NCBI RefSeq assembly: GCF_011045215.1
Contig: NZ_CP049201.1
Source of the DNA: Escherichia coli
Lineage (GTDB): Bacteria > Pseudomonadota > Gammaproteobacteria > Enterobacterales > Enterobacteriaceae
Strand: one strand, 5' to 3'
DNA: 64,000 bases
The translations under genes and the position numbers were made by a program. The notes under the pieces are model-generated. The model did no database searches. It was not told where the DNA came from and saw nothing but the letters and a program-made list of their open reading frames with translations. Below are positions 42,806 through 53,054 of this stretch, one piece after another. Position 1 is the stretch's first letter; each line of letters begins with the position of its first letter.

Positions 42806-43321
<516 letters not shown>

Positions 43322-43328
43322 CACTAAC

Positions 43329-43353
43329 GCCCGCACATTGCTGCGGGCTTTTT
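43329..43353 (+). terminator. Intrinsic terminator after uspF
   Basis: GCCCGCA-cattgc-TGCGGGC followed by TTTTT. Confidence 0.7.
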
Positions 43354-43496
43354 GATTCATTTCGCAAATGTGCTGACATTTTCCCCTCTAATCCGTACCA
43401 TACACGCCACAGTTTTTATATCAGATTTCTTATGCTGGGCGTTCCGGCATGACGCATACTCTTCTGATGCCATATAACGAATTGAGTCGCTTTTAA

Positions 43497-43550
43497 ATGT
43501 CGCAAAATCAAGAAATTAGCAAGAAAGAACAATACAATCTGAACAAGTAA
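43497..43550 (+). pseudogene. ttcC: ttcA 5' fragment (ttcC-like), prophage attachment-site duplication
   Basis: ATG...TAA encodes MSQNQEISKKEQYNLNK, near-identical to recalled TtcA N-terminus (MQENQQITKKEQYNLNK...), then stops. Confidence 0.7.
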
Positions 43551-43652
43551 GGGCAAAAATCACAACCATCTGATGCATAATAGTTTTATTTATTTTTCAA
43601 TGCGTTAATCATTATCAGCAACAACAATAAGCTACGATAATCCACTCTTTTG

Positions 43653-43698
43653 TTGCCCCATTTTTGCCCCTTTTACAGCATTTTGCCCCATTTTTGCC
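43653..43698 (+). repeat. Two exact 16-bp direct repeats TTGCCCCATTTTTGCC spaced 30 bp apart
   Basis: Copies at 43653-43668 and 43683-43698, in non-coding DNA at the prophage end. Confidence 0.8.
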
Positions 43699-43782
43699 AC
43701 CGAAAAAATTCCAAAACTTCTCAACCTCAGCACGTTCTTGAATATGGCATATGACAATTTCCTTTACGATTTATATGCTGTT

Positions 43783-43825
43783 ATAAAAATCCCCAGTTGT
43801 CAGCAACAACTGGGGATTTACTTTT
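43783..43825. terminator. Bidirectional intrinsic terminator downstream of the HTH-peptidase gene
   Basis: Perfect 10-bp stem CCCCAGTTGT-cagca-ACAACTGGGG flanked by A-rich and T-rich runs. Confidence 0.7.
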
Positions 43826-43873
43826 CAGGCCCAAAAGACGTTCACTACGACTCTAGATGTGAGCATTTACGGG

Positions 43874-44980
43874 TCATACTAGTCGGAGCGAAGCCCTTGA
43901 TGGTGTTCTTTTGTTATTTCCGCCACTAATTGCCGCAACTCCATAAAGCAAACTACTCAATTCATCGAGAGGTACGTTAAGCTCATTACTCAAGTGAGCC
44001 AGATAAATGCCGTCTCCAGCCAGAGCAGTCATCATTTTTTCTATAACGAGTGATCTTTCGCGCTCAATTCCCCCCGGCTCACCGGTTCGATACCCCTTTG
44101 CCGTCGCATCACGCATCAAACTATTATACTGCCATTCCGTCAGCATATTTAGATTGCGCATTCTGACAATCAGGGCCATAGCCGAAACTTTCCAGAGTGA
44201 TTTCAATTGCACAATTTTATCAAACGTCGGGACCACCATCTTAACGGCCATCACGTTTTCCTGAGGCATTAGAAATGCAGAAGCAAAAGCATCCGCTTCA
44301 CGCTCAGCATCCTGCCCTTTGACTTCCCCTTGACGATGAAGTACTAGGTGAGCCAATTCATGTGCGGCATCAAAACGGCTGCGTTCACCTGACTTGCGTG
44401 TGTTAAGAAAGATATAAGGAACATCATCTTTCCAGAACGAAAAAGCATCAATACTCGCTGTTTCCTCTGAAAGCCAGAACACCTTAACTCCAAATTTCTC
44501 AAGTAGATGAACAACATTGGTGATACTCTTCTTACCAATCCCCCAAGCCTCGCGTATCGCTTGGGCAGCGACCTCAGGCTCACTTCCACGGAGATTCGGC
44601 AATTGAGGCGAAGGAAGAGTAAAGCGAGCATTAAAATAATCGCTAAGCATAACCCCTAAAGCACCTGCACCAATTGCCGCATGCTGGTCAGCAGCTTTTG
44701 TTGTGCGTAATGAACGAAATGAAACAGTCAATGGATCAATTGTTTCAACATCATCGCCAAAGAAAAAAGCCTCTGGATAATTTAAAGCACTAGCGTATGC
44801 GCGTACCGTCTCTGCCGTGGGTGCATAAAGACAATAATCTTTTTCGTATTCAATTACGATACGACTAGATAACCCGGTTCGCCTCGCCAGTTCTGCCAAG
44901 GTCAGTTTGCGTCTGATCCGCGCTAGCTTTAGTCGAGACGGATTAAAAAGACGTTTGACATCATCAACAGTGTTACTCAT
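43874..44980 (-). CDS. XRE-type HTH + ImmA/IrrE-family zinc metallopeptidase fusion protein
   Basis: N-terminal HTH (LARIRRKLTLAELARRTGLSSRIVIEYE); HEXXH motif with downstream Glu/LMP (AAHELAHLVLH...EREADAFASAFLMP); ATGA start/stop overlap with upstream gene. Confidence 0.8.
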   Translation of the reverse strand: MSNTVDDVKRLFNPSRLKLARIRRKLTLAELARRTGLSSRIVIEYEKDYCLYAPTAETVRAYASALNYPEAFFFGDDVETIDPLTVSFRSLRTTKAADQHAAIGAGALGVMLSDYFNARFTLPSPQLPNLRGSEPEVAAQAIREAWGIGKKSITNVVHLLEKFGVKVFWLSEETASIDAFSFWKDDVPYIFLNTRKSGERSRFDAAHELAHLVLHRQGEVKGQDAEREADAFASAFLMPQENVMAVKMVVPTFDKIVQLKSLWKVSAMALIVRMRNLNMLTEWQYNSLMRDATAKGYRTGEPGGIERERSLVIEKMMTALAGDGIYLAHLSNELNVPLDELSSLLYGVAAISGGNNKRTPSRASLRLV

Positions 44981-45648
44981 TTGCTTTCAACTGAAATTGA
45001 TATGTCATCATCAAAATCCTGTTCAGGGAAAATATCCGCACCTTCAAATTGCAGAGGAGCTAAAATAATTCGCTCACTCCACGCGCTTACTCTGGCAAAT
45101 CCGTCCTGATTCACCATCCCTACCGGATACGACACCTCACAGCGAATTTCTTTATTTGCCGCATCATAATAATACAGAACGATATAAGTTCGGGTGCTAT
45201 CTATCGGCGTGATCTCAGCTTTGCCTGAATGTAAGGTATCTGCTTGGAACATATCGAATGTACCCGGATTGTTGTGAACAATCGAGCGAGTTGCCTCTCC
45301 CTTTGCATTTTTGGTTTTAGGCAATCCATCAGGACGCCCGGTATGTCCGTCACCTGAGGTAATAATCAGATTAACCCCTTTGCTTGAATTAACGACCATT
45401 TCCATGCGATTGACTACTTCAGAAGACCAGCCGTTACCCTTACCAATCAGAATACGGCGAAGCGCGGCAACCATCTCACTCCAAAAGCGGAATCCAGCAT
45501 CCACTTTAGGGTGGAGCTTACTGGATTTGCGTCGCTCGTATAAAGCAGACATTAACGCATCGCGAATATCATTTTCTGTAAAGCCCAGTTTACTAAGTAC
45601 AAAATCCGAATCAATTCCTGTATGCAGAACACAATGAGGCATATTCAT
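44977..45648 (-). CDS. Hypothetical protein, partner of the HTH-peptidase gene
   Basis: ORF with GGGAG RBS before MNMPHCVLH...; stop overlaps next start (ATGA); no family recognised by eye. Confidence 0.6.
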   Translation of the reverse strand: MNMPHCVLHTGIDSDFVLSKLGFTENDIRDALMSALYERRKSSKLHPKVDAGFRFWSEMVAALRRILIGKGNGWSSEVVNRMEMVVNSSKGVNLIITSGDGHTGRPDGLPKTKNAKGEATRSIVHNNPGTFDMFQADTLHSGKAEITPIDSTRTYIVLYYYDAANKEIRCEVSYPVGMVNQDGFARVSAWSERIILAPLQFEGADIFPEQDFDDDISISVESK

Positions 45649-45884
45649 GAAAGTTTCTCCCATCACTTTTACTTCATGATTTTATCATAAAATTTATGCA
45701 AAAATCAAGAAGTGACACCCTGCAAGCGATTGTAGACTTTCTCTTGTTTTCTTACGTTCCTGCTCTCCAATTGCGCAATTGATTTCTTCAACAATATGAG
45801 AGTACACATCATAAACCTCCGACTGCAGCCAGCAACCGGAGCCTCATTCTTCAGATACCAGAACAACTCACTGCGACCTATTCG

Positions 45885-51878: not shown

Positions 51879-53054
51879 TTATTCAACCTCTTCTAAACTG
51901 CTCACTCTGGACCCTCGGCGGAAATTATCATCATTTTTAACATACTCGTATGAATCCAGAATCAAACCAGATATGCGAAGTATATCTTCCGGATTAGTTA
52001 TATGTATCCTTTTACCATCCGTATCAAGTCGAGCTCGTCTTATTTCATTCAACTGAACTTCACTAAGCGAAATAGGTAAAGTTATAAATGAAGATTTTTT
52101 ATCATAAAATCTTAACAGCCATCTATTTGTTTTACCATTCAATAGTACACCGAAATATGACTCAGTATCTTTATATTCTATATTATCTTCTGTTTGTATG
52201 ATTTGTTTTACCCTTTCAAATAGCTCCAATTCTTTGGCTGTGGTTATTATGTTGGGGTTTTCTTCATCAACAATGGCGTTATTAACTTGTGTATCCGTTG
52301 CATCATTTTCTTTAGTTTGCTCTACCGGTTGTGTAGATAGCCCGGAAACCACCATTGCGCTAACAGCGCGCTCAACGGCCTGTTTAACTAATGGAGTCAC
52401 GAACTCAAGAAATCTCTGATTAAGTTGTCTCTCAATATTTGAACGACTAGCAACATATCGAACAAACTCCAGATCAACTTCACGAAGACTAGAACTGATT
52501 GTTTTAGTAAATGAATTCAAATAAACACTTTCTTCAGCCAGTGTCCGTAAAGCCTCTGGTTTGAATTTATCATAACGAAAACGAAATAATTGTGTAATAT
52601 CGGAGTGAGTTAGAGAATCCATTCTTAATTTTAAAAACGGCGTTGAATCCATTATGTTTTTTTGTTTCAAATCCGTAAAAAAACGCCATTCAACACCATT
52701 TGTAATGGCTGATATAGTAACTTCCGGTGTTGAATTAAAATATCTTGATAGCTGTGGGCAGTGATTATCAATTTGTTCTGAAAACGATTTCGCCTCAATG
52801 AACATCACAGGAACATCATGACAAAATAAAGCGTAATCAACCCGTTCATTAGCCTTAACCCCGGGGAAGTCAGCACTATACTCAGCTTTGACTTTTCTTG
52901 GATCATACGGAGTAAAACCAAGAATATCTAGTAATGGCATAATGAGTGCTTGTTTTGTCGTTTCTTCAGTTGTACAAAACACCCCCATTTTTGCAACATG
53001 CTCTGTGTGTATTTTTAACTTATTTGCAAAATTTTCCATGCTTGTCTCCTCCAT
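51879..53054 (-). CDS. Orphan HsdR-N-like PD-(D/E)xK nuclease-domain protein (AT-rich moron; candidate defence gene)
   Basis: N-terminal motifs ETTKQALIMPLLDILGF / RVDYALF / VMFIEAKS / QLSRYF / AITNGVEWRFF as in type I R-subunit N-domains; C-terminal ~270 aa unassigned; AT-rich; likely start at second ATG (53039) after GGAGGAG. Confidence 0.7.
   Translation of the reverse strand: MEETSMENFANKLKIHTEHVAKMGVFCTTEETTKQALIMPLLDILGFTPYDPRKVKAEYSADFPGVKANERVDYALFCHDVPVMFIEAKSFSEQIDNHCPQLSRYFNSTPEVTISAITNGVEWRFFTDLKQKNIMDSTPFLKLRMDSLTHSDITQLFRFRYDKFKPEALRTLAEESVYLNSFTKTISSSLREVDLEFVRYVASRSNIERQLNQRFLEFVTPLVKQAVERAVSAMVVSGLSTQPVEQTKENDATDTQVNNAIVDEENPNIITTAKELELFERVKQIIQTEDNIEYKDTESYFGVLLNGKTNRWLLRFYDKKSSFITLPISLSEVQLNEIRRARLDTDGKRIHITNPEDILRISGLILDSYEYVKNDDNFRRGSRVSSLEEVE

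Follow-up and report, generated by a model that had tools for sequence, protein, structure and literature searches.

A prophage end in Escherichia coli carries a closely spaced pair of exact 16-bp direct repeats, and the question raised by this locus is which protein, if any, reads them. The first-pass annotation had suggested arm-type sites for the integrase or excisionase of the prophage, or else operators for an adjacent helix-turn-helix (HTH) protein. Our comparison of attachment regions indicates that IntR, the tyrosine integrase encoded by the prophage itself, probably uses the repeats as arm-type (accessory) binding sites in the outer attR arm. Throughout, the window means the whole 64-kb stretch of DNA that was analysed, and coordinates refer to it unless a genome is named.

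The repeats and their natural unit

The repeat pair is as it was first described: TTGCCCCATTTTTGCC occurs twice on the + strand, at 43653-43668 and 43683-43698, 30 bp start to start, in a non-coding interval bounded by the 5' ttcA fragment (43497-43550) on one side and the last prophage gene (43874-44980, - strand) on the other. The bases that flank the two copies differ (g at 43652 and t at 43682; c at 43669 and a at 43699), so the exact repeat is 16 nt long. No further copy was found in the 64-kb window even when 3 mismatches were allowed, and the pair is the sole exact direct repeat of at least 14 nt with copies 4-100 bp apart in the window. First-order Markov simulation of the window (60 runs) produced on average 0.03 repeats of this kind with a length of at least 14 nt and none that reached 16 nt; a separate shuffle figure of 25/100 counts any match in the window that has no more than 3 mismatches, and has no bearing on a close exact pair.

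Read in register, the repeats resolve into an array of four units of 11 bp that follow the pattern TTTTTGCCCC(A/T), with TGCC(C/A)C at 43654, 43665, 43684 and 43695, spaced by 11, 19 and 11 bp. The natural unit is 11 bp and not the 16-mer, which is one full unit plus the first bases of its partner. The original description had mentioned a spacing of about three helical turns, which fits the 30 bp but is secondary, the primary period being 11 bp. The array consists of two tandem pairs 30 bp apart, 108-155 bp outside the 26-bp core of the attachment site. The core-proximal pair of putative arm-type sites (43650..43672, + strand) is composed of TGCCCCA at 43654-43660 and TGCCCCT at 43665-43671, 11 bp apart, and includes the first 16-mer. 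The distal pair, also putative (43680..43702, + strand), is composed of TGCCCCA at 43684-43690 and a degenerate TGCCACC at 43695-43701, again 11 bp apart; it includes the second 16-mer and is the last conserved element of the outer arm.

The prophage end and the layout of attR

The window encodes the host genes ydbK, ompN and uspF on the + strand, followed by a 5' fragment of ttcA and then by prophage DNA that continues to the window end. The prophage belongs to the Rac type and interrupts the 5' end of ttcA, a gene that Rac-type prophages occupy in many complete E. coli genomes; the end seen here is its right one, attR. The ttcA fragment (43497..43550, + strand; 17 codons, MSQNQEISKKEQYNLNK and a stop) was recognized by reading the sequence as the host's original ttcA start, left here after insertion. 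Alignment of prophage-free genomes to intact ttcA stops exactly at 43546, and comparison of attL with attR restricted their identity to AAGAAAGAACAATACAA(C/T)CTGAACAA, which is 43521-43546 in the window. This 26-bp segment (43521..43546; AAGAAAGAACAATACAATCTGAACAA), common to attL, attR and attB, is the attR common core and contains the crossover; the corresponding 26 bp are annotated as attB in the record of phage Rac-SA53.

The phage-derived outer attR arm (43547..43702, + strand) is the int-distal arm, equivalent to the P arm of lambda, and an alignment of attR arms showed it to be a block conserved among Rac-type prophages. Two sites for IHF are predicted around the core. A perfect consensus match lies on its host side (43506..43518, + strand; AATCAAGAAATTA) and is homologous to AATCAACAAATTA of the P' arm, and an IHF-like site (43595..43607, + strand; TTTCAATGCGTTA), with 1 mismatch to WATCAANNNNTTR and an A/T tract before it, lies midway between core and array, where it is predicted to bend the DNA. 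The TCAA and GTTA parts of the latter site were invariant in ten arms while its four central N positions varied. The matches in the core-array interval (1 mismatch) and in the P' arm (perfect) are kept in relatives, as predicted sites identified by consensus matching alone.

The window does not reach the integrase end of this prophage, and the int-side arm was read in close relatives instead. A stretch of 401 bp at the attR end (43480-43880) is 97.3% identical to strain C7, in which a prophage of ~51 kb sits at the same place with the same gene order over the portion within the window, and in which the other prophage end reads xisR, intR, then ttcA. A Rac-type att arm surrounded by the E. coli-type chromosomal genes ydbK, ompN, uspF and sitABC was also found in the record of Salmonella phage SPF_0923 (ON032529), which is probably host or transduced DNA, or a mis-assembly, and not a phage genome.

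The motif in other Rac-type prophages and on the other arm

Ten attR arms were aligned, including those of K-12, BL21, Rac-SA53, an O145 strain and C7. The array was nearly invariant in all ten, even in an arm only 84% identical, with one unit substituted in the O145 strain. The fourth unit is degenerate, reading TGCCAC in the window and TGCTAC or TGCCAT in some relatives. Homology between every pair of prophages was lost 0-23 bp past the last unit, and megablast matches ended at 43699-43724, which makes the array the outermost element of the conserved att module. The genes beyond it vary among genomes (ynaM/ydfK in K-12, sitA, nleC, tail-fibre genes), and the array is independent of the gene that neighbours it in this window. 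Five units rather than four were found in USMARC-49610 and in at least a dozen other genomes, the extra 11-bp unit being TTTTTTGCCCC.

The first-pass annotation had proposed a search near the other prophage end and in related phages, and this search was productive at both, with 11-bp-spaced pairs after the intR stop (K-12, C7, DLL7555) and in eight relatives that are described below. On the int-side arm of K-12 and C7, TTTGCCCCCAATTTGCCCCATTT lies directly after the intR stop and comprises two units, 11 bp apart and in the same orientation, ~50 bp before the core. When attP was rebuilt from the C7 attL and the window attR, the motif matched six times, all in two clusters 198 bp apart. An attP-like junction in DLL7555 has the int end, a variant pair, the core and a four-unit array on one contiguous stretch. 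This junction is located in the chromosome (int 3' fragment, P' pair, phage-version ttcA start, core, array), where it adjoins an omptin gene, and it looks like what is left of a Rac-type element, tandem or rearranged, at a site other than ttcA.

The integrase and its distant relatives

IntR (411 aa) encodes a Pfam Arm-DNA-bind_2 domain, with an AP2-like model, at residues 5-69 (E 6.6e-26), in addition to a catalytic domain. Residues 1-74 were modelled with AlphaFold (pLDDT 90) as three strands and a helix. A search of PDB sequences with IntR matched the catalytic and core-binding part only (Tn1549 Int), leaving the N-terminal domain unmatched. The DUF3596/PF12167 arm-binding domain defines the IntBPP-1 subgroup of tyrosine recombinases, which includes the integrases of an Stx2a phage and Gifsy-2, and its members are termed putative integrases (Smyshlyaev et al., 2021; PMC8138268). 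IntR and the relatives we examined carry this domain and resemble the subgroup in that respect; the published work is a protein classification in which DNA sites are not described, and the sites are proposed here.

A tblastn search of phage genomes with IntR returned 182 records, and the region downstream of int was read in thirteen of them. In eight phages with integrases ~35-44% identical to IntR we found GCCCCA pairs of 11-bp spacing both at the 3' end of int and downstream of it. Seven of these, with integrases ~42-44% identical to IntR, share the motif TGCCCCA: mEp460, CharmingMan, Klebsiella RCIP0034, Klebsiella RothC, Providencia PSTRCR_117lys, an Stx1 phage and Fraca. Their distance from the int-proximal pair to the next pair, the measure used throughout, is 207-211 bp. 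The eighth, Aeromonas pAEv1818 (35%), has GCCCCA and a distance of 208 bp, and the value for Rac itself (window plus C7 attL; TGCCCCA), whose integrase is the reference, is 198 bp. One half of the downstream pair in mEp460 is degenerate (TGTCCCA). As in the window, a second downstream pair follows the first at 30-31 bp in the Stx1 phage and CharmingMan, with an 11, 20, 11 layout in the Stx1 phage. The core regions between the pairs could not be aligned among the eight phages, except at an IHF-like site and, in some phages, at a block beside the presumed core. An unbiased scan of the relatives' regions for any 6-mer making at least two tandem pairs returned this motif alone. In the seven phages at ~42-44%, the arm-binding and catalytic domains are ~50% identical to IntR and the core-binding domain ~28%, a pattern that fits shared arm sites with different cores.

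In the relatives the int-proximal TGCCCCA pair falls inside the int reading frame, in its last ~60 bp, and encodes a conserved C-terminal tail A-P-x-x-P-Q/H, so part of the conservation of that pair there could be at the protein level. The int gene of Rac ends sooner and leaves these sites outside the reading frame. The A-P-x-x-P-Q/H tail may be a by-product of the DNA sites.

More distant integrases keep the arrangement with a different motif. Pseudomonas KT1 (28% identical to IntR) has GCCCTAA with a distance of 207 bp, and phiCTX (32%, or 31.7%) has GTTCCCA with a distance of 173 bp, its pairs falling within the annotated 'R1, R2 repeats' to either side of a core annotated as 30 bp. In both phages the motif is unlike TGCCCCA yet is the same on both arms, and a switch on both arms together is expected if one protein reads both. 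No tandem pairs were found downstream of int in Kp4866-6 and phiNP (Int ~30% identical); an ATPase gene directly follows int in phiNP, and its attP is therefore probably elsewhere. The thirteenth record, ON470595, was rejected as an intact attP, being a prophage still joined to host ttcA. When IMG/VR was scanned with IntR, only 99-100% identical copies were returned, mostly on contigs cut at the int stop, which gave no distant comparison.

In sequence comparison, the array has several features expected of arm-type sites: it occupies the phage-derived arm outside the core, its motif is present on both arms, the integrase has a separate N-terminal arm-binding domain, and the sites are conserved with that domain while the core varies, with the motif covarying between arms. 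The suggestion that the repeats are arm-type integrase sites is therefore supported by the motif on both att arms, the arm-binding domain of IntR, the layout kept in relatives at ~35-44% identity, and the covariation of arms in phiCTX and KT1.

Integrase or excisionase

Excisionases such as lambda Xis, P2 Cox and L5 Xis typically have sites in the form of phased direct repeats with a period of ~10-11 bp. An alternative explanation is that the array, which has this form, consists of sites for XisR, the recombination directionality factor of the prophage, which would polymerise on the phased repeats and bend the arm during excision. A DUF1233 excisionase is encoded beside int in Rac and in the four TGCCCCA relatives in which the xis ORF was scanned. 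An XisR-type excisionase is thus co-conserved with Int in all the TGCCCCA phages checked for xis, and conservation alone cannot decide between the two proteins.

Published binding data bear directly on this alternative. Purified His-tagged XisR shifted a 294-bp fragment, AttR, and did not shift a 291-bp fragment, AttM, in electrophoretic mobility shift assays (EMSA) (Liu et al., 2015; PMC4632033). XisR therefore binds an attR fragment that includes the array, which speaks for XisR sites. But when we mapped the published primers on K-12, AttR corresponded to 1444-1737 and AttM to 1568-1858, and both fragments hold the whole array (1671-1722). AttM was unshifted though it holds the whole array, indicating that XisR alone did not bind the array, in what is a single published experiment with a tagged protein. 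AttR, unlike AttM, includes the core and host flank, and AttM begins exactly at the core-proximal GTAAGGGCAAAAATCAC, which suggests that XisR acts next to the core. The core-adjacent block of the outer arm at 43547-43575 (GGGCAAAAATCACAAC...; K-12 1568-1595) resembles TTTAAAAATCGACAAAGATCGTCCAGGAGC in the attP regions of Klebsiella, Fraca, Stx1 and CharmingMan phages, and also holds an inverted partial copy of the arm motif. This block is a candidate XisR site or core-type site, and such a role would explain why XisR shifts AttR and not AttM.

The position of the motif also argues against XisR. In the lambda-type layout, excisionase sites are confined to one arm and lie between the core and the distal Int sites. 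In Rac both arms carry the motif, on the int side immediately past the stop codon, and the array forms the outer end of its arm, a position at which lambda-type elements have Int arm sites and not Xis sites. Furthermore, phiCTX keeps the paired-site layout without a detectable XisR homologue: neither tblastn nor a small profile search found an XisR/DUF1233 homologue in its genome, and a Cox/Apl equivalent was likewise not identified in phiCTX by Nilsson et al. (2011; PMC3448106). We favour the view that the motif tracks Int rather than Xis, for which the evidence is phiCTX and the one published negative EMSA. Excisionase binding, the other half of the original suggestion, is not favoured, given the unshifted AttM, the occurrence on both arms and the phiCTX layout, and we consider it unlikely that the array consists of XisR sites.

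Slippage, coding and operator readings

The variation in unit number, with four in most arms and five in USMARC-49610 and others, would be compatible with slippage during replication of a T/C-rich tract, which would leave a repeat without function. But the array hardly varies while the arms diverge to 84% identity, and the same motif and spacing recur on both arms in phages with unrelated flanks, so that slippage by itself is a very improbable origin.

The repeat could also reflect a small coding gene, since an ORF on the - strand (43632-43757, 41 aa) spans it and translates to a tandem peptide ...AKMGQ...AKMGQ..., and in BL21 and other genomes the corresponding stretch is annotated in RefSeq as a hypothetical protein. 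The variant with one extra 11-bp unit, present in at least a dozen genomes, argues against this ORF, as 11 is not a multiple of 3; inter-prophage homology breaks inside the ORF; and the motif is kept at the DNA level in the unrelated sequence contexts of other phages. A coding origin is extremely improbable. Both the small-ORF and the slippage-only readings were rejected on these grounds.

The HTH protein to which the operator suggestion referred is encoded at 43874-44980 on the - strand and combines an XRE-type HTH with an M78 peptidase; it is RmrA (PADLOC E 5.6e-143). A 229-aa gene upstream of rmrA (44977-45666, - strand) is RmrT (PADLOC E 1.3e-59), and the two genes overlap by 4 bp. The two constitute a RosmerTA pair for anti-phage defence, a cargo of the prophage that lies between its tail-fibre genes and attR. 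Another cargo gene may lie within the tail module, where a 391-aa ORF (51879-53054, - strand) is found among baseplate and tail genes; its C7 counterpart is annotated in RefSeq as 'type I restriction endonuclease', and the ORF itself had a weak NCBIfam match (E 3e-4, far below the cut-off) and no PADLOC match.

The rmrT-rmrA operon starts near 45666-45710, with a promoter-like site near 45708-45679, and runs towards the att site. Downstream of rmrA is a terminator-like hairpin with a 15-bp stem (43787..43819, - strand; folding -24.6 kcal/mol, z -4.25), which is context and not part of att, and which, lying between rmrA and the att arm, separates the defence operon from the arm. A simple terminator scan did not call this hairpin, and an Rfam search of 43000-44200 gave sub-threshold matches on the hairpin only. 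A consensus promoter scan found no significant promoter at the array. Proximity is what the operator reading offers, with an XRE-type HTH protein whose stop codon is ~175 bp from the repeats, but rmrA is transcribed towards the array, which puts the array downstream of the gene and beyond the hairpin. The array is neither at the operon promoter nor tied to the regulator in its occurrence, being widespread beside unrelated genes and found mostly in genomes without rmrA (just 7 of 5426 complete E. coli genomes match at least 80% of the 401-bp query, which runs from attR to the rmrA 3' end), and the same motif is found in phages without rmrA. That the repeats are operators for RmrA is a proposal with next to no probability, and we set it aside.

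Proposed role of the sites

We propose a mechanism in which each protomer of an Int tetramer would place its C-terminal domains on a core half-site within 43521-43546 and its N-terminal domain on a TGCCCCA arm site. Bends induced by IHF, for which the site at 43595-43607 and the perfect consensus on the other arm are candidates, would fold the arms back onto the core, and through the arm-core bridges so formed the intasome would be assembled and the reaction given its direction. The minimal 2 + 2 sites of the relatives might correspond to one site per protomer of a tetramer. Rac, the Stx1 phage and CharmingMan have an additional pair, and integration and excision may differ in their use of it, as they do for P1 and P2 of lambda. 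XisR probably acts closer to the core. The layout of the sites is observed in the sequences; how they would act is inferred from it.

We found no protein-DNA binding or mutational data for this integrase family in the literature. Searches on the arm-type sites of Rac and Stx integrases, or on DUF3596, returned classification papers with no site description, and a full-text search for the motif strings returned unrelated primer sequences only. The sites have apparently not been described before for this integrase family, while the element itself is ordinary and expected.

Accessory sites of this kind would define the minimal functional attP or attR, here ~43497-43702, and would explain why homology between mosaic prophages stops exactly at the array. 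They would also provide a rule for locating attachment sites and judging the ability to excise, namely paired TGCCCCA ~207 bp apart flanking a core. Integrases of the same family mobilise many Shiga-toxin phages. A broader possibility, to which we give even chances, is that a shared arm-site code serves the whole DUF3596/IntBPP-1 subgroup, taken here to span Rac, many Stx-converting phages, and Klebsiella, Providencia and Aeromonas phages, with GCCCCA pairs 11 bp apart, one at or inside the int 3' end and one or two at an almost constant 207-211 bp downstream, whatever host gene is targeted. If such a code is real, the geometry of the intasome would be rigid and portable, and the attP and core of Stx phages would be predictable by rule. 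The int tail A-P-x-x-P-Q/H would then be a peptide shaped by an overlapping DNA site, and the balance between integration and excision could be tuned by the additional outer pair (Rac, Stx1 phage, CharmingMan) and by the variation from four to five units among E. coli strains.

Comparison with known systems

The arm-type sites of lambda attP are P1, P2 and P'1-P'3, which lambda Int contacts through its N-terminal domain. The Rac array resembles them in several respects: both systems have a short motif on both arms outside the core, repeated in tandem at intervals of about one helical turn; the outer-arm sites are well over 100 bp from the core; and the N-terminal domain has three strands and a helix in lambda Int and in the model of IntR. 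In lambda, IHF sites separate the arm sites from the core, and consensus matching predicts IHF sites in that interval of Rac. The motif of lambda is unrelated to the TGCCCCA of Rac, and the arm-binding domains belong to different Pfam families, that of Rac being Arm-DNA-bind_2. Unlike the sites of lambda, the putative Rac-type sites are strictly 11-bp tandem pairs, in a 2 + 2 or 2 + 4 arrangement, and in most Rac relatives the int-proximal pair lies inside the int coding tail.

Paired direct repeats that bind the integrase arm domain also flank the core in P2-like and 186-like phages, with the consensus sequences tgTGGaCa and tgccGCCActt (Nilsson et al., 2011; PMC3448106); the pattern recurs in the Rac type, which differs from these in integrase subgroup and in motif. 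The same authors described phiCTX as having a P2-type integrase; in our analysis the phiCTX integrase matches Pfam Arm-DNA-bind_2. The phiCTX attP (AB008550, 'region 1 with R1, R2 repeats') offers a comparison within the integrase family, and like Rac it has 11-bp-spaced pairs on both sides of its core, which is 30 bp long. It differs from the Rac type in its motif (GTTCCCA), in a pair-to-pair distance of 173 bp rather than 198-211 bp, in having no XisR-type excisionase, and in its annotated IHF sites, which lie further out, beyond the distal pair. The finding is biologically expected, and a conserved motif with fixed spacing across an integrase subgroup is a useful by-product of it. As judged from sequence comparison, the Rac array introduces no new principle and appears to extend the arm-site paradigm of lambda and P2 to a poorly characterised subgroup of integrases.
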